From IMG/VR virus record IMGVR_UViG_3300013233_000773: a stretch of DNA of 64,000 nucleotides; one strand, 5' to 3'. Of this stretch, positions 7,500 to 25,215 are shown one piece after another (position 1 is the stretch's first letter; every line of letters starts with the position of its first letter). The translations under genes were made by a program, and so were the position numbers. The notes below the pieces were generated by a model. The model worked only from the letters and a program-made list of their open reading frames with translations. It was not told where the DNA came from and ran no database searches. Origin of the DNA: a virus.

Positions 7500-8137
7500 C
7501 GGGCATGCTTTCTTGGCCTCGTCATGACGCCGAACGAGATGTCCGGAAAGAGCCTGGACGAGACTCCACGCTTCTTCATCTTCTCCTGCTGCCGAAGGAC
7601 GTTCGACGGAACGCTCCTCACTACCCGATAGGGTTCAGGCAACCCCTCCCTGCCCGCCTCCGGTTCGCCAATGGACGACCTGCCTGCTGATATCCTCGGC
7701 ACCTCCTCTAGCCGCTTGACCAGCTCAGCCTGGTTCTCCTCGCTGCCCTCTTCCTCTGGCTCCTGTATCAGGTCCGCCATCGGGAGTGCGTCGACTATTG
7801 CATCCACAAGCTCCTGCATCGTTCCTCCATGACCACGGCGCGCCGTGACCGGACTAATCCTTAGCAACGCCTGCCTCACCACCTCCGGCCCAACCTGACC
7901 ACTCTGCCTAACGTCCTGCGGAATCCTCCTTACGAGATCCTGCAGGGCCCTCTGCACTATCCTACGCTGCCTTACGGTTAGCTCAAGGAGTAGACCAGAG
8001 AGGCTCTCGCACAGCCGCTCCTCAGTCACTAGGAGCCCGCAGCCGGAGAAAACCTCGGCTAGTTCGGCAAGCAGCAGGGAACGGTGCCCAAGGACCATAT
8101 CAAGGTCTTCAATCAAGCTCATGCCGTATCTTTGCAC
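7496..8137 (-). CDS. Hypothetical protein
   Basis: 213-aa ORF; likely start MSLIEDL. An internal GGAGG-ATG (MQELVDA) could be a second start. Confidence 0.6.
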   Translation of the reverse strand: MQRYGMSLIEDLDMVLGHRSLLLAELAEVFSGCGLLVTEERLCESLSGLLLELTVRQRRIVQRALQDLVRRIPQDVRQSGQVGPEVVRQALLRISPVTARRGHGGTMQELVDAIVDALPMADLIQEPEEEGSEENQAELVKRLEEVPRISAGRSSIGEPEAGREGLPEPYRVVRSVPSNVLRQQEKMKKRGVSSRLFPDISFGVMTRPRKHAR

Positions 8138-8331
8138 TCCTGCTGCCGGACCTCACCTCGTACCTACCAGGATCTATTGAATTACTGTCGCTGTACCTGT
8201 CGGAGCTATTCGAAAAGCCACTCCCCTGGTTCACGCGCAGGAGAACCCTCGTCGGGAACTTGAAGATCTCCATGATGGGACTGCGCAGCCTAGATAGATA
8301 CACGGTCACAGCTCCCTCGCATAGGCCATAA

Positions 8332-8865
8332 TTAGGCCTGACCATCGTTCCCGCGAAGATAGTCTGGCAACGATTGTCCAACAAACTTGCGTATAAACTC
8401 CTCCTGTACTGGCATGGACAGACCATACTTCCTGGCTTCAGCGATCGCACGCTCCACATTCCAGCCCTGTGAGATCCTGTAGCACGCCACGAACGTCCCC
8501 GTGCGCCCCCTGCCAGCCTCGCAGTGAACGAAGAAGCGTCCCGCATCATGATTGCGCAGGACCCGCAGAAACTGCCATACCTGCGACATGGTAGGAGCCG
8601 TGTTGTCGATGACCGGAATGCGCAGGTTCCCCATACTTAGTTCCCTACTAGCCTCTCGGTCAATGTCCCTCTCGGCAGCAAGGTTAATACACGTCCTGAC
8701 ACCCATCTTGGCCAACGCCCTGTAGTCAGCCATGTTCCTAGGCCGCGATCCACGAACTAGGTCGCTGGATACCTCGGCCACATAATGTCTGACAGGATAC
8801 CATAATCCGAGAAACTCAAGAAGCCCAATAAGCTTCCCTATAACGTTCTTGACGTAGTCAAACAT
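8332..8865 (-). CDS. Dual-specificity/tyrosine protein phosphatase (CX5R family)
   Basis: Catalytic loop VHCEAGRGRTG and general-acid loop PVIDNTAP. Hydrophobic N-terminus. Confidence 0.9.
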   Translation of the reverse strand: MFDYVKNVIGKLIGLLEFLGLWYPVRHYVAEVSSDLVRGSRPRNMADYRALAKMGVRTCINLAAERDIDREASRELSMGNLRIPVIDNTAPTMSQVWQFLRVLRNHDAGRFFVHCEAGRGRTGTFVACYRISQGWNVERAIAEARKYGLSMPVQEEFIRKFVGQSLPDYLRGNDGQA

Positions 8866-8904: not shown

Positions 8905-10668
8905 CTACAGGCTGATCCAGGCGTTGCCGGTGAAGAACTTCAGCAGAGTACCATCGAACCAGAAGTCACTGAACTCAGGGTTTCGCCCAAGGAGGCAGGT
9001 CAGTCTTGGAAGGATGTGCGTCTCATAGTCCATGTTGTCCGCAGAGAGGCCCTCCGCGTCCACCACTAGCTTGACGATCGGATGCACCAGGCCGCCAACA
9101 TAGCCAACCGGCTCTATATGCGGATTCTCGCGCAACTCGTCCGGGAAGCCGGGCTTGGTGCGGAAGTCTATTGCATCGCCCAGGCCGTCGTCCTTCTCGG
9201 TCACGTAGCGGTTGTCGTCCGACGGATTTACCGGAACCTCGCGGCGCGCGGTGGAACCGGCCAGCGCACTGAACTGGTCCCTCGTGGGCGACCACCTCGG
9301 AGATCGGTCCACCGAGAGGAAGGACAGGATCCCGGCGTCCTGGGTGAAGGTAGCGAGCGGCGGCACGTCCAATATGGCAAGGAAGCTATTGAAGAAGTTG
9401 TCGACCTCGTCCGTGGTAGCTCCCCACAGGCTGCTCAGGACGACGTGACCCGACCCGAAGCCCTGCATGAACGACTCAGACTCGGTCCCTACGCGCCCAA
9501 GAAGATCGTCCGACGGCACTATGTCTACGACCGTGCCCGGTGCCATGCTCCGTTCCAGGGTGAGGGTTCCGAACTCCACGTCCTTCGGAACTCCTGCTGG
9601 ATCTATCGAGTGGGTAGAGAAAGTGATCTTCAGGCTGCTGGCAAGGTCATCCAGCCGCTCTATGCTGGAGAGCCAGACCGGGAAGTTCTGCCTGGTATCG
9701 TCGTCGCTCGCCTCATCCCTCTCGGGAGCGGTGATGCTCATCTCTGTGAAGAGGATCTTCGGAACGGTTATGCCGTTGACTGCCGTCCTGCTGGCCCCGA
9801 TCCGGAACGGGAAGTTAGTAGCCTCCAGCCACGAGTTGACGTTGGCGTTCTGGTCCGGGATGGCGTTCCAGGCACTGTCCACCAGAATTCCGGTCCCATG
9901 ATCGAGGGCGGCCTCGAGGAAGTCATCCGGCGTGGTGATGCCACCAGGACCAGTGCCTACCATCTCGTACACAGCCGGAACGTCGAAGATGCCGTCGCTG
10001 TCGCTGTCGGTGGCCCCGTCGGGCGGTGCGAGCTTCTTGAAGAAGTCCTGGACCGCAGCGTCCGCGAGGTTCTGCGTGCGGAAGGTGACGAAACCGTCCA
10101 CGGTGGTCGCCTCGCCCGGATCGATCGGGTTCGGCTCCTCTGCAGAGTCGGCTATCGTGATGCGATTGAGCTGATAGGTGAACACGCTGTCGATGAGGTA
10201 GTCGACGAAGAACATCGCCACCTCGGAGGCGGACCCCTTCTGTTGGGCGCTGAAGACAAGCCTGAGCTTTCCGGTTATCGCGTCCCCGGCACTGCCGCCA
10301 ATGTTGGTCCCGCTGATGCGCTTGATCTTCATGAGACGCAGCAGCTCCCACTTCGCGGGGAGGCTGACGTGCATGTCCCATATCCACGAGAGGGGCAGGA
10401 CGGTCTCCTCCGTGCCGGTCTTCACCTTTGGAGTGACCAGGAACGGGAAGAGGGACTGATGGCTGAGCCTCAGCTCGATCTGGTCGACCGCCTTGGCGAG
10501 GATCAGCTGCCGGACCACGATGTCGACGTCGGGCCTGTTCAGGACTTCGAAGAACACTGGGTCGAGCGCCGTGAGCCACCGTATATTCAGCGAGGCGTCC
10601 GTCGTGAACCTGTCGAAGAGGTTGCCTGGAGTTATCGTCGGTATCAGGCTGGCGTTTACGGTAGGCAT
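8905..10668 (-). CDS. Putative virion structural protein
   Basis: 587-aa acidic ORF with C-ending codon bias like the capsid and sheath genes. Preceded by a GTCAAACCTAAC motif. Confidence 0.75.
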   Translation of the reverse strand: MPTVNASLIPTITPGNLFDRFTTDASLNIRWLTALDPVFFEVLNRPDVDIVVRQLILAKAVDQIELRLSHQSLFPFLVTPKVKTGTEETVLPLSWIWDMHVSLPAKWELLRLMKIKRISGTNIGGSAGDAITGKLRLVFSAQQKGSASEVAMFFVDYLIDSVFTYQLNRITIADSAEEPNPIDPGEATTVDGFVTFRTQNLADAAVQDFFKKLAPPDGATDSDSDGIFDVPAVYEMVGTGPGGITTPDDFLEAALDHGTGILVDSAWNAIPDQNANVNSWLEATNFPFRIGASRTAVNGITVPKILFTEMSITAPERDEASDDDTRQNFPVWLSSIERLDDLASSLKITFSTHSIDPAGVPKDVEFGTLTLERSMAPGTVVDIVPSDDLLGRVGTESESFMQGFGSGHVVLSSLWGATTDEVDNFFNSFLAILDVPPLATFTQDAGILSFLSVDRSPRWSPTRDQFSALAGSTARREVPVNPSDDNRYVTEKDDGLGDAIDFRTKPGFPDELRENPHIEPVGYVGGLVHPIVKLVVDAEGLSADNMDYETHILPRLTCLLGRNPEFSDFWFDGTLLKFFTGNAWISL

Positions 10669-10717
10669 CTAGTGCTCTCCATGGAATGTCTCCGTTAGGT
10701 TTGACCGCGCACTCTGT

Positions 10718-11032
10718 CTAGTCAAGGTCCAGGGCACGCCTCCCAATGCCGTCCTCGGTACGCTGCTCCGCCTCGCCACGTTCTCTTCCGGCTTCCTGTT
10801 CTGCAACGTGCCCATGCCCGCGTTCGGGCAATAACTCCGAGAGCCGCTTGAGATCAGGTCGTCGTTCCTCCCTATCAGAGTTCAGACTTGGATGATCCAG
10901 ATCCTCCGCACGCAGCGCATCGTTCCTCACATACATGTCGGGCAGCGCATTGTTCCTCATCACATACATGTCGGGCATCTGAGGACCGGCATTGTCCGAC
11001 GCCGTCAATCTCCAGCCAATGGCGCTGGTCAT
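10718..11032 (-). CDS. Hypothetical protein with internal duplication
   Basis: 104 aa with GGAGGTGA RBS. Contains PDMYVMRNNALPDMYVRNDAL. Confidence 0.55.
   Translation of the reverse strand: MTSAIGWRLTASDNAGPQMPDMYVMRNNALPDMYVRNDALRAEDLDHPSLNSDREERRPDLKRLSELLPERGHGHVAEQEAGRERGEAEQRTEDGIGRRALDLD
10912..10977. repeat. Imperfect tandem duplication (30- and 33-bp units)
   Basis: gcagcgcatcgttcctcacatacatgtcgg is followed by gcagcgcattgttcctcatcacatacatgtcgg. Confidence 0.9.
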
Positions 11033-11035
11033 TGG

Positions 11036-11515
11036 TCACCTCCTGTAATGATCGCTGCACACTGGGCAGCCAGAACCATCCTTCACGAAGACGTTCAACG
11101 CCACAAGGTCACTTGACCGTACGAACGCAAAAGGACTCCCATCACGGCCATTGTATCCAACCTCCACCCTTATCTTTCCCGACACTATCCTCTCCTGCAG
11201 CATACAAGTCCTGATAAGGCAGAAGGAATGCAGGTCGCTGCCACCGCCATGATATCCGGCCAGAAGCATGTGAGTCAGCACCTCAGGCTCCGCTCTGATA
11301 CAGGCCCACGGTATGACCATCGACGGATGTCCTAAGACCGTCGTACCGAGCCTACTGCCATGCCTGACGAAGTTCTCGTGGCTGCCGACGACGATCCCGA
11401 CCGACCACCGGTGCCGGACCGAGTCCACGTCCTCGGTCATCAGCATAGCATCACCGCCGGACCTCTCTAGACCGACGAAGCCATCTATCCTCGCCAGTGC
11501 CTCTTCAATGGTCAT
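11036..11515 (-). CDS. Hypothetical protein
   Basis: 159-aa ORF coupled to the upstream LexA-like gene. Confidence 0.6.
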   Translation of the reverse strand: MTIEEALARIDGFVGLERSGGDAMLMTEDVDSVRHRWSVGIVVGSHENFVRHGSRLGTTVLGHPSMVIPWACIRAEPEVLTHMLLAGYHGGGSDLHSFCLIRTCMLQERIVSGKIRVEVGYNGRDGSPFAFVRSSDLVALNVFVKDGSGCPVCSDHYRR

Positions 11516-12446
11516 ACAGCACCTCGGACGGATTGAGCAACACAGGACTAGTTACCAGGACGGGGCCGAAAGACCTGACCACCCCCATACACGAACCGAC
11601 TATCTCTGTGCTATCCGGATCCATCGTCCCGCCGTCGCCGGACATGACAAGCGTCACTGCGCCCCCGCGCATCTGTACAGTAGCGACGCCCGCGCGACCC
11701 TCAGACTGCACAAGGATAGGCCGTCCAGACCTGACGTCATTGGGTTCGTCCAGCAGCAGCAGGTCTCCCCGCCTGACTCCGCGGTCAGGATCCACGTCGC
11801 TGCCCTCCACGCGCAGGGCGAACGGATCCAGCCCGCCAAGGTCCGCGTCCAGCCTGGTCATCCTAGCCCCTGGAGGCTCCCAGAATAAGCCCCCGGATGA
11901 CACGGACCCACGAACCAGGAGCTTCCTGCGCTCGCCGTGCAGGAAGCTCCTGTCCGCTATGACGTACACCTGTCCTCTATTCGACCTCGGAGTCCTGGAC
12001 AGCACTCCTGCGGACACCATCTCCTCCATCTCCTCGGCAACCTGCTTGTTGGACGAGCGCATCAGCAAAGCCACTGCTGAAGCCGTCGGTGCTACACCGT
12101 CCCTGCGGATGCAATCCCACACGATGTTCAGAATAACCGTCTGCCGGCCCGTCAGCACGGCCCCGCGCCTGAGATGCCGGTTGGGCATTGACCCCTTCAG
12201 CGCATCCAGGACCTCTCCTGCAGCAACGCCCAGGATGGACGCTATCTGAACGACCGGAATACCGTCCGAGGCCAGGCGCGAGACCACCACGTCAAGACCT
12301 GGACCCTCCTCAATAAGGCCCGCCATGGAGAGATGATATTCTATCACCTCCCTGCGCATACAGAGGCGGGACATTATTGTGCCGACCGGCATGCCGTCCC
12401 GGTGCATTGAGGCGATGGTGTCAGTCAGGTCCATACCTAGTTTCAA
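11505..12446 (-). CDS. lexA: LexA-like repressor with extra N-terminal HTH domains and a degenerate S24 peptidase domain
   Basis: LexA wHTH (LTGRQTVILNIVWDCIRRDGVAPTASAVA...SRTPRSNRG) plus S24 fold (FALRVEGSDV...GDLLLLDEPNDVRSG). Likely start is ATG 12434. Confidence 0.8.
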   Translation of the reverse strand: MKLGMDLTDTIASMHRDGMPVGTIMSRLCMRREVIEYHLSMAGLIEEGPGLDVVVSRLASDGIPVVQIASILGVAAGEVLDALKGSMPNRHLRRGAVLTGRQTVILNIVWDCIRRDGVAPTASAVALLMRSSNKQVAEEMEEMVSAGVLSRTPRSNRGQVYVIADRSFLHGERRKLLVRGSVSSGGLFWEPPGARMTRLDADLGGLDPFALRVEGSDVDPDRGVRRGDLLLLDEPNDVRSGRPILVQSEGRAGVATVQMRGGAVTLVMSGDGGTMDPDSTEIVGSCMGVVRSFGPVLVTSPVLLNPSEVLYDH

Positions 12447-12762: not shown

Positions 12763-13464
12763 ATGATCACGATAATGACCGTGAACCACGACACTCCAAA
12801 GTTCATCGAACTGTGCATCAGGGCGGTCCACCTCCGCACGAACATACCATACCGACACCTGATCATCGACAACGGCTCCCGCCCAGCAACGAAGACCCTG
12901 CTCCGGGAGTTCAAGGGAATGGGATGGATAGACCTGTTAGAGAGAAAGGCCGCCAAGGGAAGCTGGGGGCACGCCGAAGCTCTTGACCAGGTTCTGAAGA
13001 AGGAGTTCGGCCTGGTCTGCCTACTGGACTCAGACGCCTACCCAGCGGACCCAACATGGCTCCGCTTCCTCCACGACGGACTGATCAGGAACAAGGCCTC
13101 GGCCATAGGATTCCCGCACTTCCGGGACGCCACGCTGCTGCATCCAGCCTGTATGCTCTTCAGGCACAGCGACTTCGTCGCCGCAGGCAGGCCAAGCTTC
13201 AGGATCAAGGGCTCTCTCCGAACCAAGTTCTGGGACACCGGCATGATAGTCTGCAGGGAGATGCGCCGCAAGGGCAAGCTGGTCCCCTGCGACGAGAAGG
13301 AGCTCGGAAGGATGGTCAAACACAGATGGAGAGCAACAAGGGCCGAGGTCGCAACGCACCGCAGGCAGAACGTGCTCGACGAAACGCCGCTCATCAAGTA
13401 TGCCAGGAAAAGCAGAGACTGGTTCAAGGACCCATCCGCAATGGAAGCTCTCGACCATCATTAA
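12763..13464 (+). CDS. Glycosyltransferase family 2
   Basis: TVNHDT...IIDNGS, DXD-like LLDSDA, GAAAGGAGG RBS. Confidence 0.85.
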   Translation: MITIMTVNHDTPKFIELCIRAVHLRTNIPYRHLIIDNGSRPATKTLLREFKGMGWIDLLERKAAKGSWGHAEALDQVLKKEFGLVCLLDSDAYPADPTWLRFLHDGLIRNKASAIGFPHFRDATLLHPACMLFRHSDFVAAGRPSFRIKGSLRTKFWDTGMIVCREMRRKGKLVPCDEKELGRMVKHRWRATRAEVATHRRQNVLDETPLIKYARKSRDWFKDPSAMEALDHH

Positions 13465-14120
13465 CGCGGCAACGGACAGGGAGGCACATACAGGACCTCA
13501 CCAGGAACGTCGTCCCCACCCATCACGTAGTGCCTAACTTCGCACAGGTGATAATGATAGCATTTCACCTCATGGCACGGATTTATGACGTCATATTGTT
13601 TCGACAGCAGGAACGCTATCCTGTTGTCGCACCTCATCTTCCCCATGTAGAAGTCCGCCTTGACGTCAGGAAAGCCGCCACGCACGATCCAGGCGTCCTG
13701 GCTGTGCTGGTTGCTACACGGCACTGGGTCCATTAGACAACCGTCCCGATAATCCCACCGTGAGAGCGCAAGACAATAGTTGCGCCAGTTCCATCCCTTA
13801 AGCAGGACCATGGACCCAGCATCCAGGACGATATCGGAATTCGCCACGGCATTTACATCGCCACCATGCTCCCTGGTCAACCTGAAGTAGTCCCTGTACG
13901 TCGGGCGGCCTTCCATGACGACAGTATGTAGCCTCGACCAGTTAGCATACCCGAACTCGCTCTTCAGATGGTCCAGGCGTTTGGCGTCCTTGCCGTTCGC
14001 CAGGACCACCACCAGGTCAAGCTCTGGATTGCACAGGTTCTCCACCAGGCAATAGTCGAGCTCGGTCTGCCGCCTGGGCTTGGCATCCACGTAGTAGTTG
14101 ATGAATAGATTGGCCTTCAT
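13461..14120 (-). CDS. Putative GT-A-fold glycosyltransferase-like conserved protein
   Basis: ANSDI (DXD-like), ALSRWD, SQDAW and CDNRIA motifs. Family recognition is tentative. Confidence 0.55.
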   Translation of the reverse strand: MKANLFINYYVDAKPRRQTELDYCLVENLCNPELDLVVVLANGKDAKRLDHLKSEFGYANWSRLHTVVMEGRPTYRDYFRLTREHGGDVNAVANSDIVLDAGSMVLLKGWNWRNYCLALSRWDYRDGCLMDPVPCSNQHSQDAWIVRGGFPDVKADFYMGKMRCDNRIAFLLSKQYDVINPCHEVKCYHYHLCEVRHYVMGGDDVPGEVLYVPPCPLPR

Positions 14121-14407: not shown

Positions 14408-15268
14408 TCAGCGGCCAATCCTCAACCACAGCAAGAACCTGTACTTCGGAGGCTCCCTCACGCGCCTCAGACAGTTCAGTTCAGAATATTCGCGCTCCGA
14501 CATGGAACACCGCCTGGCCCTGTCGTAGACCGTCTTCTTGTGCACGGACGAACCATCCACGGCGACATAATGATAGCTGGGAGAGGTCATCCCGTCGGCC
14601 AACCAGTTGGCGGCAAGATAGATCGTCCCGGAGTGTCCCTGCGCAGGATCTGCGAACGACGTCAACAGCCTGACCTCAGGATTCTCCCGACCATACCTGG
14701 AGACAGCCCTGGACAACAACCACGACGCGAAGTTCTTCCGCTGATAGTCCGGGTGAAGGCAGAACCTCACTAGCTCCCGGACCTCGGACTGCTCAAGGCC
14801 ATGCCTGGACGCCATCTCCGCGCGCACCACCGGACCGACCGTCACCGCCCCGACCAGCGTTCCACCAAGGCGCGCACCGACCGTCCAGCCACGCCTGCCG
14901 GACCTACCCAGATAGTGGAAGGCCCCATAGAAGTCAAGGTACTCACTGGCCGGAACCGTCTCAAGACGGACCTCGTCGAACGAGAACTCCATCGGCGACA
15001 TGGCGAGCCCGATCCTCCGCTCCAACTCACCCAGGTCGTCGCCGACCACCATGAACCTGTCCCGGTAGCGGGCGAATCCCGCCATTATCTTCTCCCGCTC
15101 CTTCGGCTTCCTGGCAAGCCACTCGGACTTGGTCTCCACCACGAGGAACTCACCGTTCGACAACCAGATCCGGAAGTCAGGGACGAAGTGTCTCTCCCTT
15201 CCCCCCGAACTCATACGGCACGAGGTCAAAGTCCCTCTCCAGACGGACGACACGCCCGTCGGAGTCAC
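14408..15268 (-). CDS. C-terminal part of an HTH/TnsA-like endonuclease-Mom fusion (nuclease C-half plus Mom-like GNAT domain)
   Basis: RHFVPDFRIWLSNGEFLVVETK followed by FHYLGRSG...ELVRFCL...NFASWLLSRAV...SFADPAQGHSGTIYLAANW. Continues ORF 15177..16382 across a frameshift. Confidence 0.85.
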   Translation of the reverse strand: MTPTGVSSVWRGTLTSCRMSSGGRERHFVPDFRIWLSNGEFLVVETKSEWLARKPKEREKIMAGFARYRDRFMVVGDDLGELERRIGLAMSPMEFSFDEVRLETVPASEYLDFYGAFHYLGRSGRRGWTVGARLGGTLVGAVTVGPVVRAEMASRHGLEQSEVRELVRFCLHPDYQRKNFASWLLSRAVSRYGRENPEVRLLTSFADPAQGHSGTIYLAANWLADGMTSPSYHYVAVDGSSVHKKTVYDRARRCSMSEREYSELNCLRRVREPPKYRFLLWLRIGR

Positions 15269-16382
15269 ACGCCTCTATCAGCCGGAGCTCGTACGACGAG
15301 TCATGGTTAAGCTCGCCGAACCTCGTGGACACCGTACCGCGCCTTGACCGGACCAGTCCGCGCCTTCGCAGGTCCGAGATCAGCAGCGACTGTCTACGCC
15401 TCCTGTCCAGGTCTGACCACAGCTCCGACTGCTTCCTCCGGACGACCTCGACGTACTCCGGATGGTCCTCCCAGAACTTCCTTCCAAAGACGGCACCGAC
15501 CTCGGCGCAGTACCTCCTCGTCTCCTCGACGTGCCTGCGTCCATGAAACGGATTGCCACCGCCAGAGAACATCTCGGACACAGCATCCGGCCTCACGCCC
15601 TCCCCGACCAGGATCCGCTTGACTGCCTCGACGGTACAGCCGAACCTTGCCGCAACCCTGCTCATGGAGCCGACCGCACGATACGCACCGAGCACGGCCC
15701 CACGGTCGAGCCGCTGGTTCCTCCTCGAGATCGAAACCTTCTCTATCCCGTACTTTCTCAATCTATAGTCGACGAAGCCCACTCCCCTGCCGATGAACGA
15801 GGCTATCGCCGGCATGCCGTATCTGCAATATGCGTTCCTGAACCACTCCTCCGTGTCCTCATATGGCGGCAGGTCGGTCGGTACGGACTCACTGCGACGC
15901 TTGCGCACCATCCGGGGCTTCCGGACCGGCACTCCGCCCTCCACGAGGACCTTTCTCACGACATAGGTGGACACGCCATGCCTGCTGGCCACCACGTGCA
16001 TGCTGTCGCCGGACCCATACTCCCTGCAGATGACCGCGCGGTCAATGCCGTCCACGGCCACCTTCACTTCATGCTTCTTGAGCACGCGACCGACCGCAGC
16101 GACTGACCTGTCGGTATCCTCGGCTATCCTGGAGACCGTCAACCCACGCCCCCGGAGCGAGACCACCCTCCTCACGAACTCCGGATCGAACCTAGACCTC
16201 TGAGCACCTGACCTAGATCGAGACAGGCCAAGATGTCTGAACAGCTTCCCGACCGTGCGCCGCGGAACGCCAAGCAGGACACCTATCTCCGCCTGAGTCT
16301 TGCCCTCGCCGAACCACGCCCTCACGCGCTCCTTGTCGGACTTGGAGAACGTCTCGTGAACAGGAACCGGAACAGAACCCAT
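15177..16382 (-). CDS. N-terminal part of the same gene: multiple HTHs, NUMOD3-like motif and start of the TnsA-like nuclease
   Basis: Several HTH-like segments, NUMOD3-like GNPFHGRRHVEETR, then HDSSYELRLIEACD...VPYEFGG. Terminates just after a G6 run. Confidence 0.8.
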   Translation of the reverse strand: MGSVPVPVHETFSKSDKERVRAWFGEGKTQAEIGVLLGVPRRTVGKLFRHLGLSRSRSGAQRSRFDPEFVRRVVSLRGRGLTVSRIAEDTDRSVAAVGRVLKKHEVKVAVDGIDRAVICREYGSGDSMHVVASRHGVSTYVVRKVLVEGGVPVRKPRMVRKRRSESVPTDLPPYEDTEEWFRNAYCRYGMPAIASFIGRGVGFVDYRLRKYGIEKVSISRRNQRLDRGAVLGAYRAVGSMSRVAARFGCTVEAVKRILVGEGVRPDAVSEMFSGGGNPFHGRRHVEETRRYCAEVGAVFGRKFWEDHPEYVEVVRRKQSELWSDLDRRRRQSLLISDLRRRGLVRSRRGTVSTRFGELNHDSSYELRLIEACDSDGRVVRLERDFDLVPYEFGGKGETLRP

Positions 16383-16385
16383 GAA

Positions 16386-18086
16386 TTACCTTCTCCCGAG
16401 CACCTCTACGAAGAACTCAACCGGAGACCTCACCCTGTTCCTGGAGCGTAGCGGCACCACCCTGGCACGGAACCGGGAACACACGAAGTCCCTAAGCCTT
16501 CCATCAAGGTGCAGCACCGTCCTTCCGACCTCCAGGGCACGCCCTATCAGGCCCACGACGAACGACCCAGCCCACTCCTCAAAGCCACCATAATCCACGC
16601 CGTCCAGATAGTCCTCCTTGTTCCAGAACGGCGGAGAAGTGAACACGAATCCATCACCCGGCCACCCCGCATCCTCCCACCTAGAGTTCAACAGGACGGC
16701 GGAACTGCCTAGATAGTCACGGAGCCCAACGAGCCCAGGAAAGCAGATCCCCGGATCAGTGCCCCAGTAGTCCAGCCCCAGCACGTGTGACGCAAGTAAT
16801 CTGTTGCCCCAGCCGGCACAGGGATCGACCCACCGGCCCGACAGGTCTAGCGTCCTGACCGCAGCCATCACGGCAGGACACCCGAGCAGGGAAGCTCTGG
16901 ACATCCCGACGAACATCATTTCCCTCAATAGCCTCCTCGGACCTATCCTCGAACCAGGGTTTAGAAATAGGCGCTCAACGCCCTTGCGCACCAGGTCAGA
17001 GCGCAGGCCAGCAACTGGCGGTTGCCCGTTCAAGGAGACCCTCCAGACGTCCGGCTGAAAGCTACAGACAACCTCGTTGCCTGCGGAGTGCAGGTTCCTT
17101 ATGGACTGGCCGTCCATGAACTGCCCAAGATCAGTCCCACGCAGTCTCTCAAGGTCACCCTCCCTGTCGAACCATCCCGGAGCGGACCAGCCCTCCTCAA
17201 GTACGAGACCGGTAACGCGGTCAACGACCTCATGGACGTCGGTCCTATGCCGCACGTCGCCCTGCGGAATGCACAACTCAAAGTCATGCATCGACCTCCA
17301 CCGCAGGACCTCCCTGCCCCAGAACTCGTCATATCTGGCATGCTTCCTGTCCAGGAAGACGGTTGCTCCATCATAGAGCCAATCGAGCAGGACAGCCAGT
17401 CTACTTCCACCATTCCACTTCAGCTCGTGCACGGACCCACGGCGGCGGACCGCTCCGGACAGGCCGATTGCCGAATGGACCCGCTCGTCCATGGACCGCA
17501 GCGGGCCGGCATGGCGGCAGACGATGTTGACGTACCATGAGGACGTCTTGCCGGACCACCTGGACAGGCACCCGTCACCGTCAAAATAACCACGCAGGAA
17601 ATGACGGAACGAGCAGTCCGGGACATGTCCTATGATGGAAGGATCGCCATTCTCCTTGTACCGCTGCCAGCCAAGGCCGAGCAATCTCCTGGACATGCCG
17701 GTTGAGTTGAAGACGAGCCCCTTCCTTGGGTGTTCACGGTCATCCGCGACAAGCCTGCCCCGATGTCCTATGGCGGCCTGCAGTTTCTTGAGGTGACCGC
17801 CGTCGGATTCCTTCAGGAAGACGCGCACAGCACGCCTGGTTCCTGCCGACTTGGCCAGGCATCCGTCGGCAAGCAGGAATCCGAGCCAATAGGATGGCTT
17901 TTCTGCCTCAAGGTCGCCAAAGAAGTCTTCTCGGAGCCTGAACTTCCTTGTTCCGGTAGACCTTCCCTTGAGGCCGAGCCTGCGCCAGTAACGACGCACC
18001 GTGGTTATTCCACAGCCGAGCTCTACCGCCATTCTTCTCTGCGTGAAGCCGTCTGCATGGAGCTTTATGATGACATTTTCGTCCAT
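16386..18086 (-). CDS. HTH-LAGLIDADG endonuclease fused to an amino-DNA methyltransferase domain
   Basis: YWLGFLLADG and FLRGYFDGDG motifs; C-terminal SAM-binding DPCAGWG and catalytic-type FTSPPF. Confidence 0.85.
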   Translation of the reverse strand: MDENVIIKLHADGFTQRRMAVELGCGITTVRRYWRRLGLKGRSTGTRKFRLREDFFGDLEAEKPSYWLGFLLADGCLAKSAGTRRAVRVFLKESDGGHLKKLQAAIGHRGRLVADDREHPRKGLVFNSTGMSRRLLGLGWQRYKENGDPSIIGHVPDCSFRHFLRGYFDGDGCLSRWSGKTSSWYVNIVCRHAGPLRSMDERVHSAIGLSGAVRRRGSVHELKWNGGSRLAVLLDWLYDGATVFLDRKHARYDEFWGREVLRWRSMHDFELCIPQGDVRHRTDVHEVVDRVTGLVLEEGWSAPGWFDREGDLERLRGTDLGQFMDGQSIRNLHSAGNEVVCSFQPDVWRVSLNGQPPVAGLRSDLVRKGVERLFLNPGSRIGPRRLLREMMFVGMSRASLLGCPAVMAAVRTLDLSGRWVDPCAGWGNRLLASHVLGLDYWGTDPGICFPGLVGLRDYLGSSAVLLNSRWEDAGWPGDGFVFTSPPFWNKEDYLDGVDYGGFEEWAGSFVVGLIGRALEVGRTVLHLDGRLRDFVCSRFRARVVPLRSRNRVRSPVEFFVEVLGRR

Positions 18087-18089
18087 TGA

Positions 18090-18115
18090 TAGAAGTATCC
18101 AGTAGAAGTATCCAA
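18090..18115. repeat. 13-bp direct repeat TAGAAGTATCCA(G/A) x2
   Basis: Read directly, immediately upstream of the LAGLIDADG-MTase start codon. Confidence 0.85.
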
Positions 18116-18194
18116 CAGTATGTTTGTATCGGACAAGCTGTTCAAATAAACTATCTCAACACCAACTGGCGACTTAGATGAGATGTCTTCCTAT

Positions 18195-18233
18195 AAAAAG
18201 AGGCCCCGGAGGATGTGCTCTCCGGGGCCTCTT
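18195..18233 (-). terminator. Rho-independent terminator after the major capsid gene
   Basis: 14-bp perfect stem AAGAGGCCCCGGAG / CTCCGGGGCCTCTT with an 8-nt loop, running into a T5 tract on the minus strand. Confidence 0.9.
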
Positions 18234-18265: not shown

Positions 18266-19816
18266 CTACAGGTTGGAGACTGTCACAACACCGTAGTAAA
18301 GTCCGCCGTCCTCGATGAGTTTCTTGCCGTATCGGGTCATGATGCCCTTGGAAGGCGTGAAACTGTTCGGATCGAGGACCGTGGGGGTGCTCAGGAGCGG
18401 TATGTACGGCGCGTAGAAGTACCCGCTGTCGAGCACCGAGTTGCCCTTGAAGCCGAGCAGGATCTTGCAGTTGGGGAAGAGCGGATCCTTGTAGAGCCGC
18501 AGCTTGCCCTGGATCGTTCCGGCGGAGGTGATGCCGATGTCGATCCCGTCCTGGGCGAGGGCGTCGGAACCACGGAAGTCATTCAACTGCTCGAACTTGG
18601 AGGCGATGTCGGCAGAGGTCACCATCCAGTTGGCCGGCCCGCGGAGGGTCGTCCTGTGGATGATGTTGGAGACTTCCAGCACCTTGTAGAGCAGGGCGAT
18701 GTTCCGATCGGTGAAGTTGACCGAAGCTCCTGCCGCCGTTCCGAAGTTGTGGGTGGTCCTGATCGAACTGGCGATGATCAGGTCGTTGATGATTTCGCGG
18801 TCGATCTCGGCGACCATCTCGTCGGCCATGAGGTCGGTGAGGGTCCCTTCCGCGTCGATGTTGTGGACGCTCTTGAGGTCCTGGGCCGCTTCGAGGGACC
18901 AGGAGGTCTTGAGCTTCCGGGTGATCGCGCTGACCGTGTCACTGTCGATCGAGAGCGTGATCTCGGGCTGGAAGGGGTTGTTCTCCAGGTCGAACTCGTA
19001 GTCAGCCCTGGCGATCGCTCCTGCCGGGAACGAGCCGGACGAGAGGGTGATCTTGAGGCTGGCATCGGTGTGGTCGAACTTGGTCGCTCCTGGAGTGGTC
19101 GTGTCGACTGTGACCGTGGGACAGGCCGTCGAGTCGCTGACCAGGACCTGGTCCGGGTCGCCGTTCGAGTCGAAGCTGATCTGCAGGCAGGGCTCTGGCG
19201 ACTCGCAATTGTCGGCATCGGAGAGGAAGACGTTGACGGTGAGGGTACCGCCGAGCACGGGCTTGTGGAGCAGGCCAGAGCTGGTGATGAGGGTACCGGC
19301 GGTGTCGATGGTGAGATCTTCGTCCTTGACGGTCTGGGAGCTGTAATAGGGGTCGAGCGCCCATCCGTTCTGCCGTGCGAACTGCTGGGCGGTGTTCTGC
19401 CTCATGATCTGGGTTCCGGCGACCGTCTGGCCCTTGCTGATGGCGTAGCGGTATCGGATGTAGAAGATGAGGCTGGCTGGGCTGCTCATGGGTTGGACGC
19501 CGACGAGGTTGTCCGCGATCAGCCGGGGGTAGGACTTCCGGATGAGGGGAAGGGCGAACCTGGTGAAGTCGGCGATGTTGCCGGTGGTGGTCGCTTCCTC
19601 GAAGAGGGGGGACCCTTTCCGGTCGCTGTGGGCGTGCTGGTTCTCGAGCATGGCGGCCATGAGGTCGAACTTGCCTGCCTTGACCTCGGCGCATTTCTTG
19701 AGCACGGGTGCCCATTTCTTGACGAGCTTGTTGCGGCGTGCTTCCATCATGAGGTGGGCGTCGCGCCGTTTGTTGTCCTCGGTAATGGTGCCGGCCCTGG
19801 GGGTTCCGCTTCGCAT
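18266..19816 (-). CDS. gp23: Major capsid protein (T4 gp23-like)
   Basis: LIADNLVGVQPMSSPASLIFYIRY, TRKLKTSWSLEAAQDLKSVHNIDAE, GYFYAPYIPL, KGIMTRYG. Confidence 0.97.
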   Translation of the reverse strand: MRSGTPRAGTITEDNKRRDAHLMMEARRNKLVKKWAPVLKKCAEVKAGKFDLMAAMLENQHAHSDRKGSPLFEEATTTGNIADFTRFALPLIRKSYPRLIADNLVGVQPMSSPASLIFYIRYRYAISKGQTVAGTQIMRQNTAQQFARQNGWALDPYYSSQTVKDEDLTIDTAGTLITSSGLLHKPVLGGTLTVNVFLSDADNCESPEPCLQISFDSNGDPDQVLVSDSTACPTVTVDTTTPGATKFDHTDASLKITLSSGSFPAGAIARADYEFDLENNPFQPEITLSIDSDTVSAITRKLKTSWSLEAAQDLKSVHNIDAEGTLTDLMADEMVAEIDREIINDLIIASSIRTTHNFGTAAGASVNFTDRNIALLYKVLEVSNIIHRTTLRGPANWMVTSADIASKFEQLNDFRGSDALAQDGIDIGITSAGTIQGKLRLYKDPLFPNCKILLGFKGNSVLDSGYFYAPYIPLLSTPTVLDPNSFTPSKGIMTRYGKKLIEDGGLYYGVVTVSNL

Positions 19817-20634: not shown

Positions 20635-21795
20635 CTATCTGGCCAACATTTCCCTGAACTGCCTGAGGAGGACTTCCTCCGTGATCTTCTTGACGTCCCG
20701 GTGGGGCGTGCCCCTGGTCAATGACTCCATGACGCTCAGCTGTGCGGTACTGACGGAGGGCTCGGCGACTGCGTCGAAGGTCACGATCGCGTAGCCGTCC
20801 TGGACCTCGTATACCTCGTCGCCCTCCTTGACGGTCAGGTCCATGTCTCCGACGCCCCTGCTGCTGACGCCGACCTGGATCTTCCTGTCAAGGAGGCATT
20901 CTAGCATTGCTCCGCACGGCATCCTGTCGTCGTTGATGACCTCGGCCTCGCCGTAGACGACGTCGCCCTCCATCCAGAGCTTGGTCATGAGGTGGGAGAC
21001 GCGGTCCATGTGAATCTTGGCGTCACAGTTTCCAGTCCAGTACGAGTGGCCTTTGTGCTCCATGTAGAAGCTGCCATGCTCCGTGGTCAGGCAATAGATG
21101 CGGCCCTTGTGTTGCCGCTCCTCGATCTGTATGGCGTCTGGGCAAAGAGATATGCTCTCAACATCTCCACCGTCCTCGACGCTGCGTGGTATGGAATGTC
21201 CGGCGAAGTTGGCCCTGTCCTCATAGATGGTCCTAGCAGTTGCAATGACCTGGTGCATCGTTCCGCTGCGGTCAACGTCCATGATAATCTTGTGCGGGCC
21301 AGTGAAGACATCGTCTATCCTCCTTCCAACGAAGGAGTATACTGGCCCTTCATATTCCTCATTGATCACGGACGTAACCTTCGACTCGACCATATGCCCA
21401 TCGACCCGTGAAAACACAACAGTTCCTACTGTAACATCGCTGAATGCCTTCCAGCCCTTCACGGTCAGAACGCGGAAGTCATCGTCTATCCGGCATGGAT
21501 GGTCGAACTCGCCCATGACGCGGCGTTCCTTGATCGCCTTCTGCATGGACTTCACGGCGTTCTCGAGGACCTTCTTGGGGTAGACTCTGCCGTTCTGGTT
21601 CTTCTCGTTGGCCTTCTGGAATATGCCGGTGACGCGCATGACCGGCGTGCCGCGCCTGCCTGTCGGGGAGTCCTCCTTGAGGACTCCCTTCTTCATGTCG
21701 AGCAGCTTGAGCGGCCTGGTGTCCCTGATAAGGCTTAGGCCATCCGGGACGTGTCCCGAGATGGCCATTTCCCGTAGTTCCATGATGGTCGGCAT
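20635..21795 (-). CDS. gp21: Prohead core protease (T4 gp21-like) containing a mini-intein
   Basis: GIFQKANEKNQNGRVYP, GEFDHP, GVSSRGVG and TFDAVAEPS motifs. Interrupted right after GEFDHP. Confidence 0.93.
   Translation of the reverse strand: MPTIMELREMAISGHVPDGLSLIRDTRPLKLLDMKKGVLKEDSPTGRRGTPVMRVTGIFQKANEKNQNGRVYPKKVLENAVKSMQKAIKERRVMGEFDHPCRIDDDFRVLTVKGWKAFSDVTVGTVVFSRVDGHMVESKVTSVINEEYEGPVYSFVGRRIDDVFTGPHKIIMDVDRSGTMHQVIATARTIYEDRANFAGHSIPRSVEDGGDVESISLCPDAIQIEERQHKGRIYCLTTEHGSFYMEHKGHSYWTGNCDAKIHMDRVSHLMTKLWMEGDVVYGEAEVINDDRMPCGAMLECLLDRKIQVGVSSRGVGDMDLTVKEGDEVYEVQDGYAIVTFDAVAEPSVSTAQLSVMESLTRGTPHRDVKKITEEVLLRQFREMLAR
21028..21495 (-). mobile_element. Mini-intein (156 aa) in prohead protease
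   Basis: N-terminal CRIDDDFRVLTVKGWK, block B FTGPH, block F IYCLTTEHGSF, C-terminal WTGN followed by +1 Cys. No endonuclease domain. Confidence 0.9.
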
Positions 21796-21816: not shown

Positions 21817-24800
21817 CTACTTGCTAGAACGTGCAGGTTTGCCCCGGGACCCAGCGAGGTCGTCCTCGGTCCACTTCGGCTTCGGCTTCATCGTTCCGCC
21901 GTCGCCGTCCTTGCGGGCAGCCTGTTCACTGTTGTAGTCGGGATCGGTCGGCTTTCCGATGTCGTTGTCCTCGGTGACGCACGTGCAGGGGTTCTTGCCA
22001 CATTTCTCGCAACCGCAGTCGCACTCACCCTTTGCCTTGCCGCACGTCTTGCACTTTTCGGTCGCCTCGCCGAGCTTGCCGAGCTTGCCGAGCTTGCCGA
22101 ATCCGAAATCCTCTTCCTCATCTTCGGCCTCCTCTTCCTCCTCCTCCTCGGCTGCCTCCTCGGCGTCCTCTTCAGCCTCCTCGGCGTCCTCCTCAGCCTC
22201 CTCGGCGTCCTCCTCAGCCTCCTCGGCGTCCTCCAGTTCAGAGGCCTCCTCAGCCTCCTCGGAGCCCATGCCACCCTGCTCCTCCTCGGCCTCCTCGGAG
22301 CCCATACCACCCTGCTCCTCCTCTGCCTCCTCGGAGCCCATGTAGTCCATGTCGTCCATATCGTTCATGTCAGGAGGCATCCCACCCTCGCCACCCTCGC
22401 CACCGGACGGCAGTTCGGATGTCAGAGCCGCGATCTTGGACACGATCTCGTCATAAGGCTCGCTCGTGTCGATGTTCATGTCGAGGCTCTTGCCGTCGTC
22501 GTTCACCGAGACGTTCACGCTCGCCTCGTTGACTGCGGCACCGCCCCTCTTACGGCCTTCTTCCGTCTTGTTTATGGTGGCCCGCCCCTTGACCGGCATC
22601 GCCAACCTGCGACGCCTGGTCGGATCCTTGTACTGATCCTCGTCGGTGGTCCCAAGGTTCTTGTCGGCAACGCCGGAGCCTTCCTGCTCAGGATTGTCGC
22701 TCTTGCCGCCGCCAGCCTTGCGCCCATCGCTCGACGACGAGCTGCGCCCCGTGATGCCAGTGCCGCCCTTGGAGCCCATCTTGTCCTTGGCGCCACCGGC
22801 CGAGCGTCCATCGCTCTTGTCCAGGCTCGGCGTCAGGACTCCACCGGAGTCGCCACCGTCCCGGTCCATGCCGACCGCGCTGCCCACCTCCTCGTAGACG
22901 TCATACCCGCATCCGGGGCAGACCGCGCCCTGGTCCGTCAGGCATTCGACGATGCTCGTTCTGGTTCCGCAGTCAGGGCAGACTATCGAGTCCGCGAGCA
23001 TTCCCTTCCGGCTTCCCTTGAGGACCGCACCGGGATGCCCGTCCGGGCTGACGTTCATGTTCTCCGGGCTGGACTGACTGCCCATGGCCTTGCCGCGGGA
23101 CCTTGCCTGGTCCTTGCCGCCCTCCTGTCCGCCAGGCTTGACCTGCTTCATCTTCTCGGGCCAGGTGGTGTGGTCCTCCTCGATTCCATAGTCCTTGTTG
23201 ATCCGGACCTCGCAGCTCACGTCATAGGCGTATGGTTCGGTCTGCACGCCTTCGAGGTTGACCTTGGAGTTCTCGGCGATGATGCCGGCGAACGCCCTGG
23301 CAAGGACGTCGTCCCTGAGCTGACGCGCCCTATCCCGCAGTGCCCCGAGCACCATCCGCGCCGTGCCTGGATCGTCCGCGAAGGCAGTCGCAGACTCCCT
23401 CTTCCAGGCCTTCAATTCCTTCCGTAGGAGGTTCCTGTCGAGCCTGGAGACGTCCTCACGGAGTCTCCGGACAAGGGATTCGGTCGGGCCGTAGCCGCAT
23501 TCGCAGACGTCACCCTCCATCATGGCTCCGCAGTCGGGACACTTACCCTTCTTGCCTGCATCCTCCATGGCGTAGCCACACTCGCACATGTCGCCTTCCA
23601 TCATGGCTCCGCACTTGGGGCACTTGCCCTTCTTGCCTGCATCCTCCATGGCGTAGCCACACTCGCACATGTCGCCTTCCATCATGGCTCCGCACTTGGG
23701 GCACTTGCCCTTCTTGCCTTCCCTGATGGTACGTCCGCGACGGCTTCGCGACTCGAGGGCCGAAAGGAGGTCGTTGCCTTCCTCTTCGCCCCCTTCGCCC
23801 CCTTCTTCTTCGCCGAACGGGAGGGCACCTTCCTCTCCTTCACCCTCCTCTTCACCCTCTCCCTCTTCGCCGCCGAGGTCCTGATCGCCGAAGGGCTCTG
23901 GTTCCTCGAGTTCCGGAATGCGGTCGTAGTCGGCGAGGCTGTCGATGTCGTTCAGGAGGTTCTCGGAAGTCGAGGCGACCAGTTCCTCAACCTCCATGAG
24001 GGTCGCGTCGTCGACGTCGTCCTTGGTGCCCTCGAGGCGGACGATGTATTCGTCTAGGGCGTCGGTGAGGTCCTTGTCGTTGCTGCCGGAGACTACGTCC
24101 CGCATGTTCTTGAGGGCGGTGAGGTACATCCTGGCCTTGGCGGACTTGGTGCTGACGTCCTCGGTGAAGACGACGTCAAGGAACCTGTCGTAGGCATCCT
24201 CGAAGTCCTTCGCCTCGTCCAGGAGCCGCACGTTCTCAACGAGCGGTGCGTGCTCTGCCATCCGGGCGACCTTCTTCCACTCGTTGACGATCACGTCCCG
24301 GTTGACGAAGCAGTTCGTCCTATACACGACCTTGGACACGTCCTCGATGAGCCTATCGTTGAAGCACAGCTTGGTGGCCAGGACGTTCTTGACGAGCTCT
24401 CTGGTAGAGTGCCTGTCAAGCAGGGAGAACTCCTGCTCCTCGGAAAGGAAGGCCGCAAGGTTCTTGACGGCGTCCTCTACCTTGCCCTCGCTGATCAGCG
24501 CGGCAACGTGCCCGAGACGCTTCTGGAAGCCGTCGGCCAGGTAGGCCTTCTCTGCGATCCTACACATGCTGCGGGCCACGACCCTGCGCCTGGTCAGCTC
24601 GCTCACTGGCAGCAGGAAGGGCTTGTCGTTGAAGGTCGCCTCGACGATGCGCCCGCGCTGCACCTTGACGGTATCGGACAGTGCATCGACGACGCGGCGG
24701 ACGATATCTCGCCTGGAGTCCTCGGAGACGATCGACTCCTCCACGGGCACACGCCGGGTGACGCCGTCCCTGGTGGTCACCAAACCGTTCGGCGGAACCA

Positions 24801-25215
24801 CTCGGGACCTGAACCGGTGCCGGGTTATCTTGCTGAAGCAGGAGTCGGCCTTGCGGACGTCCTCATCCTGGACGGCCTCGACCAGGTCCAGGACGTCCTC
24901 GTGGAAGTTGTGTGGCTTCTCGGACTCTACGATGCGGATGCGCCTCGGATCGGAGATCCTGACGCGGCCCTTGCCGAGGTGCTTAACGCCGGCAACGTAG
25001 TAGTTGCCGTCGTCCTGGTCCTCGAAGACGACCGAGCTCCTGTCGAGCGATGCGAGCCGCCAGCGGCGGTTGACCTTCTCGCCCATCTGCTGGATGCGTT
25101 CGCTGAATAGGGCCGTCTGGCTCTGAGCACCGGAGTTTATGGTCCTCAGAAACTTGCGGGCGTCCATCGTGACGACGTGCTCCGCACCATTCCTGCTCTT
25201 CGTGGATTGCCTCAT
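21817..25215 (-). CDS. Large acidic head-core/internal protein with Cys-rich and Glu-rich repeats
   Basis: 1132 aa between portal and protease. Globular N-terminal ~430 aa followed by low-complexity repeats and CxxC motifs. Confidence 0.8.
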   Translation of the reverse strand: MRQSTKSRNGAEHVVTMDARKFLRTINSGAQSQTALFSERIQQMGEKVNRRWRLASLDRSSVVFEDQDDGNYYVAGVKHLGKGRVRISDPRRIRIVESEKPHNFHEDVLDLVEAVQDEDVRKADSCFSKITRHRFRSRVVPPNGLVTTRDGVTRRVPVEESIVSEDSRRDIVRRVVDALSDTVKVQRGRIVEATFNDKPFLLPVSELTRRRVVARSMCRIAEKAYLADGFQKRLGHVAALISEGKVEDAVKNLAAFLSEEQEFSLLDRHSTRELVKNVLATKLCFNDRLIEDVSKVVYRTNCFVNRDVIVNEWKKVARMAEHAPLVENVRLLDEAKDFEDAYDRFLDVVFTEDVSTKSAKARMYLTALKNMRDVVSGSNDKDLTDALDEYIVRLEGTKDDVDDATLMEVEELVASTSENLLNDIDSLADYDRIPELEEPEPFGDQDLGGEEGEGEEEGEGEEGALPFGEEEGGEGGEEEGNDLLSALESRSRRGRTIREGKKGKCPKCGAMMEGDMCECGYAMEDAGKKGKCPKCGAMMEGDMCECGYAMEDAGKKGKCPDCGAMMEGDVCECGYGPTESLVRRLREDVSRLDRNLLRKELKAWKRESATAFADDPGTARMVLGALRDRARQLRDDVLARAFAGIIAENSKVNLEGVQTEPYAYDVSCEVRINKDYGIEEDHTTWPEKMKQVKPGGQEGGKDQARSRGKAMGSQSSPENMNVSPDGHPGAVLKGSRKGMLADSIVCPDCGTRTSIVECLTDQGAVCPGCGYDVYEEVGSAVGMDRDGGDSGGVLTPSLDKSDGRSAGGAKDKMGSKGGTGITGRSSSSSDGRKAGGGKSDNPEQEGSGVADKNLGTTDEDQYKDPTRRRRLAMPVKGRATINKTEEGRKRGGAAVNEASVNVSVNDDGKSLDMNIDTSEPYDEIVSKIAALTSELPSGGEGGEGGMPPDMNDMDDMDYMGSEEAEEEQGGMGSEEAEEEQGGMGSEEAEEASELEDAEEAEEDAEEAEEDAEEAEEDAEEAAEEEEEEEAEDEEEDFGFGKLGKLGKLGEATEKCKTCGKAKGECDCGCEKCGKNPCTCVTEDNDIGKPTDPDYNSEQAARKDGDGGTMKPKPKWTEDDLAGSRGKPARSSK
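22070..22340 (-). repeat. Cluster of short coding tandem repeats (GKL)n, (EEAEEDA)n and GGMGSEEAEEEQ
   Basis: 9-bp gccgagctt units, 21-bp cctcggcgtcctcctcag-like units and 36-bp GGMGSEEAEEEQ units are visible in sequence and translation. Confidence 0.9.
23491..23718 (-). repeat. 81-bp tandem repeat encoding GKKGKCPKCGAMMEGDMCECGYAMEDA (2 full + 1 partial)
   Basis: Read directly. Each unit has a CxxC...CxC zinc-ribbon-like pattern. Confidence 0.95.

Follow-up and report, generated by a model that had tools for sequence, protein, structure and literature searches.

Why should a single phage gene join a homing-type nuclease to a methyltransferase? The question arises in a 64,000-nt stretch of DNA (the window) from an uncultivated large phage (IMGVR_UViG_3300013233_000773), in which an intact gene on the minus strand, at 16386..18086, encodes a 566-aa protein made of a helix-turn-helix (HTH), a LAGLIDADG nuclease domain and a methyltransferase module. 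The design of this fusion is conserved and apparently undescribed. Our preferred reading, to which we give an even chance of being right, is that the gene is a mobile homing-endonuclease cassette with a nuclease-coupled fused methyltransferase that most likely protects the carrier genome.

Architecture of the fusion protein

A sequence-only reading of this DNA had described an HTH, two intact LAGLIDADG motifs and the methyltransferase signatures DPCAGWG and SPPF, and re-translation of the window recovered all four motifs in place. The LAGLIDADG motifs are YWLGFLLADG (aa 66-75, 17862-17891) and FLRGYFDGDG (aa 163-172, 17571-17600); DPCAGWG is methyltransferase motif I (aa 421-427, 16806-16826) and SPPF is motif IV (aa 484-487, 16626-16637). 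All of these, like the domains of the protein described below, lie on the minus strand. The start codon of the gene is consistent with the N-termini of 30 homologues in an alignment. The motifs are not a product of chance, since DPCAGWG and TSPPF are invariant in the 30 homologues and the acidic residues of the LAGLIDADG motifs, the metal-binding aspartates D74 and D171, are kept in at least 90% of them. An AlphaFold2 (AF2) model of the full-length protein (mean predicted local distance difference test score, pLDDT, 91.7) has, in its N-terminal half, an HTH of three helices followed by a short disordered linker and a pair of alpha-beta-beta-alpha-beta-beta-alpha units. The HTH (aa 1-42, 17961..18086) is weak in Pfam (HTH_28/HTH_23, aa 6-42, E about 0.01), yet the model contains its three helices at aa 3-37.

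The nuclease domain (aa 55-254, 17325..17924) has the features of a monomeric two-motif LAGLIDADG homing endonuclease, that is, acidic-ended helices, a duplicated fold and sporadic presence at a fixed site. In Pfam the N-terminal half of the protein matches LAGLIDADG_3 (PF14528), and PHROG 4645, annotated as 'endonuclease', spans aa 3-254 with an E-value of 6e-33. A family profile matches I-DmoI/E-DreI (E 1e-7), and Foldseek retrieved I-AniI, I-OnuI and I-Tsp061I at E 4e-8, with target-normalised TM scores up to 0.63; its LAGLIDADG matches, which include E-DreI, range from E 4e-8 to 7e-7. The proposed LAGLIDADG half is thus borne out by its fold and by its kinship to I-DmoI, I-AniI and I-OnuI, and the nuclease is probably active because of this fold, these profile matches and the conserved D74 and D171.

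Conservation of the fusion

Separate genes for the two halves, which the sequence-only reading had named in advance as the result that would speak against a true fusion, are not what the homologues show. Around 30 full-length homologues (556-629 aa; C-terminal halves 37-45% identical) have this domain order without interruption, and in homologues from different samples the junction contains no stop codon and no frameshift. Further, the same methyltransferase module is fused to LAGLIDADG_2, LAGLIDADG_3, Endonuclease VII and TnsA-like nucleases, the LAGLIDADG_2 fusions having their HTH in a different position. Because these are several unrelated nuclease folds, the module has been joined to unrelated homing-type nucleases more than once. 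Judged from these alignments, the LAGLIDADG-methyltransferase fusion is real and selected.

We searched for the same arrangement elsewhere. A tblastn search of 50,697 deposited phage records returned no full-length relative: 57 of them matched the nuclease half, and in every one the C-terminal 312 aa stayed uncovered. Nor did a relative turn up in 185,579 prokaryote species, each represented in the scan by a single genome, and a search of the published literature found no description of a LAGLIDADG-methyltransferase fusion.

The C-terminal module is a predicted amino-methyltransferase

The C-terminal module (aa 255-566) was resolved through a collection of homologues, profiles and structure. 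The window protein itself matches neither of the curated DNA methyltransferase models PF01555 and PF02384 above threshold, and its link to PF01555 is transitive only. An exhaustive phmmer search yielded 326 relatives, and PF01555 (N6/N4 DNA methylase) is matched by 39 of the 70 distant phmmer relatives; the relative P0032, which carries PF01555, aligns over 247 aa (27% identity), and P0033 also matches PF02384.

An AF2 model of the isolated 312-aa module, built from a 72-sequence alignment, reached a pLDDT of 95.6 and a predicted TM score of 0.92. It comprises a conserved subdomain of ~130 aa (aa 255-385, 16932..17324), modelled with high confidence, followed by a seven-stranded class I (Rossmann) methyltransferase core (aa 386-566, 16389..16931). 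The subdomain accompanies the Rossmann part regardless of the nuclease partner and may contact DNA. In the core, DPCAGWG comes after strand 1, the motif II acidic residue D444 (within 16752-16772) closes strand 2, and SPPF comes after strand 4; D444, which is part of a 'TDP' sequence, is conserved in at least 90% of the homologues, and the protein ends ~80 aa past motif IV with the last Rossmann strands. The module therefore has the class I fold, the motif I with strand-2 acidic residue and the motif IV of an exocyclic-amino methyltransferase.

Structural comparison agrees with this assignment. The best solved structure found with VIA-align was TrmN (Z 15.7, root-mean-square deviation 2.4 A over 161 residues), and further neighbours, many with Z above 12, were Trm14, Trm11, TGS1, METTL5, RlmL, RsmC and PrmC, all of them amino-group methyltransferases bearing a (D/N/S)PP(F/Y/W) motif. 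Foldseek (E 1.5e-6) retrieved Trm11, METTL16 and the type I enzyme HsdM. The module superposes as a whole on giant-virus proteins (query-normalised TM about 0.7) whose annotation is N4-cytosine or type I methyltransferase. The claimed amino-methyltransferase half is hence upheld by the model, by these structural matches and by the PF01555 matches of distant relatives.

In the module, motif I precedes motif IV (a gamma-like order), the reverse of PF01555 (beta-class) enzymes, which is why Pfam matches the relatives only in fragments; the gamma-order module is compact and is missed by current profile libraries. An SPPF motif is typical of N4-cytosine methyltransferases. Here it marks the module as a predicted class I methyltransferase acting on the exocyclic amino group of a base, with N4-cytosine as the favoured target and N6-adenine as a possible one. 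We infer that the substrate is DNA from the DNA-binding and DNA-cutting partners to which the module is tethered and from its interchange with the DNA modifier Mom, described below.

A cassette hotspot behind the capsid gene

The fusion gene lies downstream of the major capsid gene (18266..19816, minus strand; PHROG 138, E 8e-82), whose stop codon is the 5' edge of a variable cassette hotspot. It begins 179 nt past that stop codon, and between the two is an intrinsic terminator of the capsid gene (18192..18233, minus strand), which folds into a 14-bp stem (dG -30.3 kcal/mol, z -5.2) and has a U-run behind it. Only 3 nt past the stop codon of the fusion gene begins a second cassette (14408..16382, minus strand) encoding a multi-HTH protein with a TnsA-like nuclease and Mom (Pfam PF25680, E 4.5e-22), so that the 3.7-kb tandem island behind the capsid terminator, proposed from the letters alone, is confirmed. 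In the window the TnsA-like/Mom gene is frameshifted near 15165-15193 and appears as two overlapping open reading frames (ORFs): the intact 660-aa orthologue of locus L128 aligns to frame -3 up to 15165 and to frame -1 from 15193. Such a break might come from a sequencing error, from decay into a pseudogene or from programmed frameshifting.

The fusion gene is placed directly 3' of the capsid gene in each of the 13 full-length IMG/VR loci, in which identity is 64-80% for the capsid and 34-43% for the fusion gene. We surveyed the hotspot by scanning 80 capsid loci with profiles; the methyltransferase hidden Markov model partly covers the nuclease region, and only matches past profile position 440 were counted. 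Many loci seemingly without the cassette carry other methyltransferase fusions. Downstream sequence of at least 2.3 kb was available for 58 loci, and at these we found 17 LAGLIDADG-methyltransferase cassettes, 14 other methyltransferase fusions, 5 other Mom fusions and 1 LAGLIDADG-Mom fusion, while 21 loci had none of these. Two loci (L154 and L156) combine TnsA-like_N with the methyltransferase module in Pfam, and all four combinations, LAGLIDADG or TnsA-like nuclease with methyltransferase or Mom, thereby occur at the capsid site of related phages. This gives strong support to the earlier proposal that the fusion is a second version of the nuclease-plus-modifier design of the Mom fusions.

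The LAGLIDADG-methyltransferase cassette is scattered on the capsid tree, with at least 9 changes, at least 6 of them forced by supported branches. In sister phages (L081/L082 and other pairs) nucleotide homology stops at the capsid stop codon. One locus (L123) has the layout of the window, that is, capsid, LAGLIDADG-methyltransferase and TnsA-Mom, and another (L148) has capsid and TnsA-Mom, the difference between them being exactly the LAGLIDADG-methyltransferase cassette. A third comparison, of L155, with a LAGLIDADG-Mom gene, and L144, with an unrelated 394-aa gene, shows both flanks in common and the cassette swapped. Phages without the cassette exist, but no relative of the window exceeds 79% nucleotide identity in the capsid gene, too little to place the window's own insertion junction and target site. 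The site directly 3' of the capsid gene is a cassette hotspot and, as far as this distribution can tell, the gene is a free-standing mobile homing-endonuclease cassette that has been repeatedly gained or lost in a clade of large uncultivated phages.

Two of the loci (L003, at 9697-11907, and L007, at 9619-11781, the latter on the same contig as L082) carry a second, different multi-HTH-methyltransferase fusion directly 3' of the LAGLIDADG-methyltransferase gene. The methyltransferase module of this second fusion falls into a clade apart, which branches deeply.

Proposed coupling of nuclease and modifier

In a tree of the methyltransferase modules, these group by nuclease partner (support 98/95 for the LAGLIDADG clade and 98/93 for the TnsA clade); therefore the fusions arose a few times, and their halves then diverged together. 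In L118 and L155, the LAGLIDADG lineage of the gene has Mom as its partner, and the Mom-fused LAGLIDADG domains group with one LAGLIDADG-methyltransferase gene (97 in the Shimodaira-Hasegawa-like approximate likelihood ratio test). This indicates a single exchange of modifier on a shared nuclease lineage, whose direction is left unset by the unrooted tree.

Every complete gene in this LAGLIDADG lineage bears a modifier, be it methyltransferase or Mom. Loss of the modifier was not seen among these complete genes, whereas loss of the nuclease was: the homologue P0020 has lost both acidic residues of the nuclease and kept the methyltransferase motifs, and L120 has a stand-alone methyltransferase module (7573-8598) directly after its capsid gene. 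The L120 module nests inside the LAGLIDADG-associated clade and probably derives from loss of the nuclease. The window itself holds four nuclease-Mom genes besides the LAGLIDADG-methyltransferase gene, which makes five nuclease-modifier genes in 64 kb, a redundancy that fits one modifier per nuclease. The asymmetry of losses and these five genes fit, and do not prove, a modifier that protects against its own nuclease.

The preferred mechanism would run as follows. The HTH and the monomeric two-motif LAGLIDADG domain would recognize and cut a long DNA site, with nuclease and methyltransferase coupled after the manner of a single-chain restriction-modification enzyme. Marking by the methyltransferase would shield the nuclease's site in the carrier, which would thus not be cut. 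In co-infecting relatives with unmarked genomes, the nuclease would cut close to the capsid gene, and repair with the carrier as template would copy the cassette.

Upstream repeats and a candidate target

Upstream of the fusion gene is a tandem of two copies of TGGATACTTCTA (18090..18114, minus strand), which ends 3 nt before the start codon. The window contains no match besides these two, where 0.07 would be expected, and the tandem is a candidate operator, promoter or target-site mimic. In related loci, the 260 nt preceding the gene show a 12-fold enrichment of the repeat core, [AT]AC[TA]T[CT]TA, which forms direct or inverted pairs there. Such pairs occur upstream of the cassette in diverged phages (L001 7881-7986, L003 7931-7960 and L004 7927-7982) and resemble the capsid codons for GYFY. 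The 9-mer TACTTCTAC recurs ~150 nt before the capsid stop codon, as the codons for the invariant YFY of the capsid sequence 'SGYFYAPYIP'.

We scanned 900 nt of the capsid gene for association with the presence of a LAGLIDADG cassette, the best column being picked post hoc. This column lies 8 nt further on than the 9-mer and is the third base of the Tyr codon: of 18 carriers, 13 have the codon TAT, and of 45 non-carriers, 38 have TAC (Fisher p 3e-5; p 8e-6 when adjusted for GC content at third codon positions, GC3). Phylogenetically independent pairs at this post hoc column are split about 6:0 (p about 0.03). A GC3 bias as the cause was rejected, the values being 0.681 and 0.679. We treat the association as a hypothesis and not as a finding.

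In the autorepression of I-TevI, the operator mimics the target. It is conceivable, and in our judgement rather doubtful, that the gene encodes a one-chain mobile 'homing restriction-modification' enzyme, which would cut the unmethylated and highly conserved GYFYAPY-coding stretch close to the 3' end of the capsid gene of competing phages and methylate the same site in the carrier, with the TACTTCTA pair as a target-mimicking operator (cf. I-TevI). The cassettes that pair a LAGLIDADG or TnsA-like nuclease with a methyltransferase or Mom would then form a general, self-immunising class of homing elements.

Other features of the window

At the far flank of the island, a GT2 glycosyltransferase gene (12763-13464, plus strand) and a convergent ORF of 219 aa (13461-14120, minus strand), the latter with no family match, have no counterpart in the 13 related loci. 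On the other side of the capsid gene, a prohead-protease-like gene (20635-21795, minus strand) has an insertion of ~155 aa (roughly aa 102-256) that is absent in most relatives, whose protease matches join aa ~100 straight to aa ~258. The insertion has Cys as its first residue and ends in '...TGN' followed by Cys, and looks like a mini-intein. Upstream of the protease (21817-25215, minus strand) is a very acidic protein of 1132 aa with long E/A-rich runs and three near-identical zinc-ribbon-like repeats (GKKGKCP.CGAMMEGD.CECGY), partly conserved in related phages. Finally, an ORF of 1245 aa (28309-32046, minus strand) has a weak, partial match to a LAGLIDADG profile near aa 560-630 (E 1e-3), which may be an intein or a nuclease remnant.

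Weighing the explanations

Several observations weigh against a protective, nuclease-coupled DNA methyltransferase. The 312 aa of the module have no match in Pfam, NCBIfam or PDB sequences up to E = 10, and among solved structures RNA m2G and m6A methyltransferases come closest, which leaves the assignment of DNA as substrate to rest on context. The module on its own in L120 implies that it can work without the nuclease. Protection needs a kinetic asymmetry, because the fused enzyme would methylate naive targets too. The association at the capsid site is post hoc and weak, and the window has no close nucleotide relative, as its capsid-gene maximum of 79% reflects.

The most tenable alternative, which we hold to be a real though minor possibility, is that the methyltransferase is independent cargo. 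The nuclease would move the cassette, and the methyltransferase, with a short specificity of its own unrelated to the nuclease target, would serve the phage in anti-restriction or as an epigenetic mark, the fusion being linkage only. The module is indeed self-contained, with its own conserved N-terminal subdomain, and stands alone in L120; its whole-module structural relatives are stand-alone giant-virus methyltransferases, and Mom of phage Mu is an anti-restriction modifier. However, five nuclease-modifier genes per 64-kb window would be an odd redundancy for a genome-wide function, the modules co-diverge with their nuclease partners, and fusion, which goes beyond simple linkage, arose repeatedly with unrelated nuclease folds.

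Protective coupling must also be set against a domesticated targeting function, which we think unlikely. A LAGLIDADG domain that no longer cuts would, together with the HTH, read the sequence for a methyltransferase without a classical target-recognition domain, for example in late-gene or packaging regulation. LAGLIDADG folds have been reused as pure DNA or RNA binders, as in maturases and WhiA (PMC3384342). P0020 lacks both acidic residues with its methyltransferase motifs intact, and the position of the cassette beside the capsid gene is conserved, as such a role would have it; but at least 90% of the homologues retain the metal-binding aspartates, the partners are always homing-type nuclease folds and never generic DNA binders, and sporadic presence and absence are to be expected of a selfish element more than of a regulator.

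We consider it very improbable that the module is inactive or has RNA or a small molecule, and not DNA, as its substrate. Its top solved neighbours are the tRNA and rRNA m2G and m6A enzymes TrmN, Trm14, Trm11, RsmC and METTL5, and one relative weakly matches a cap guanine-N2 methyltransferase family; yet motifs I, II and IV are invariant, the sequence relatives match the DNA methylase family PF01555, and the module is always attached to domains that bind or cut DNA and can be exchanged with Mom. An assembly or gene-calling artefact joining two separate genes has practically no chance of being the explanation, since the ~30 independent homologues from different samples have an unbroken junction and a single confident model spans it, and a 310-aa match that seems to stand alone, P0038, is probably a cut gene call, as its 90% cluster includes a 567-aa protein.

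Relation to known systems

Both halves of the protein are known folds, and their combination is apparently undescribed. The HTH-LAGLIDADG phage endonucleases of PHROG 4645 (such as g328 of Yersinia phage phiR1-37) and I-DmoI, I-AniI and I-OnuI share its two-motif fold and metal-binding aspartates, and those of PHROG 4645 are, as here, free-standing, provided with an HTH and adjacent to a conserved phage gene. However, PHROG 4645-type and solved LAGLIDADG proteins stop after the nuclease, at ~200-300 aa, whereas the window protein continues for another 312 aa.

The closest functional analogues are the single-chain restriction-modification enzymes of Type IIG/IIC/IIL (such as MmeI, BpuSI and Eco57I), in which a nuclease and a gamma-order amino-methyltransferase share one polypeptide and the reading of DNA. 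These enzymes have an N-terminal PD-(D/E)XK nuclease and a C-terminal target-recognition domain, act on short sites and serve cell defence. The window protein likewise pairs nuclease and methyltransferase in one chain, but its nuclease is LAGLIDADG, neither a PD-(D/E)XK domain nor a C-terminal target-recognition domain was found in it, and its gene, part of a phage virion operon, behaves like a mobile cassette. A 2012 review of the kinship between homing and restriction enzymes does not count LAGLIDADG among the restriction-enzyme folds (PMC3384342).

The nuclease-Mom fusions (Hef-like homing endonucleases, four of them in the window) have the same design and hotspot, with multiple HTHs, a homing-type nuclease and a C-terminal modifier; their modifier is the GNAT-fold Mom, whereas that of the fusion described here is a methyltransferase of the S-adenosylmethionine-dependent type. 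PF01555 enzymes and the giant-virus methyltransferases (Pithovirus, Satyrvirus and salmon gill poxvirus, in BFVD) share with the module an SPPF-type motif IV and a DPxxGxG motif I. The PF01555 enzymes, however, have motif IV before motif I, while the window module has motif I first and falls below the Pfam threshold, and the giant-virus methyltransferases, as far as their table shows, have no fused nuclease.

Homing endonucleases spare their own genome because insertion or polymorphism destroys the target, and restriction enzymes do so through methylation. If our preferred reading is true, a conserved, mobile LAGLIDADG-methyltransferase fusion bridges these two strategies of self-protection, and LAGLIDADG joins the nuclease folds that are paired with a modification enzyme. 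In practical terms, such proteins would be natural meganuclease scaffolds with a matched methyltransferase, possibly methylation-sensitive rare cutters. The fusion belongs to a set of at least four pairings of nuclease and modifier at one phage hotspot, and it points to an unexplored layer of competition among large environmental phages.

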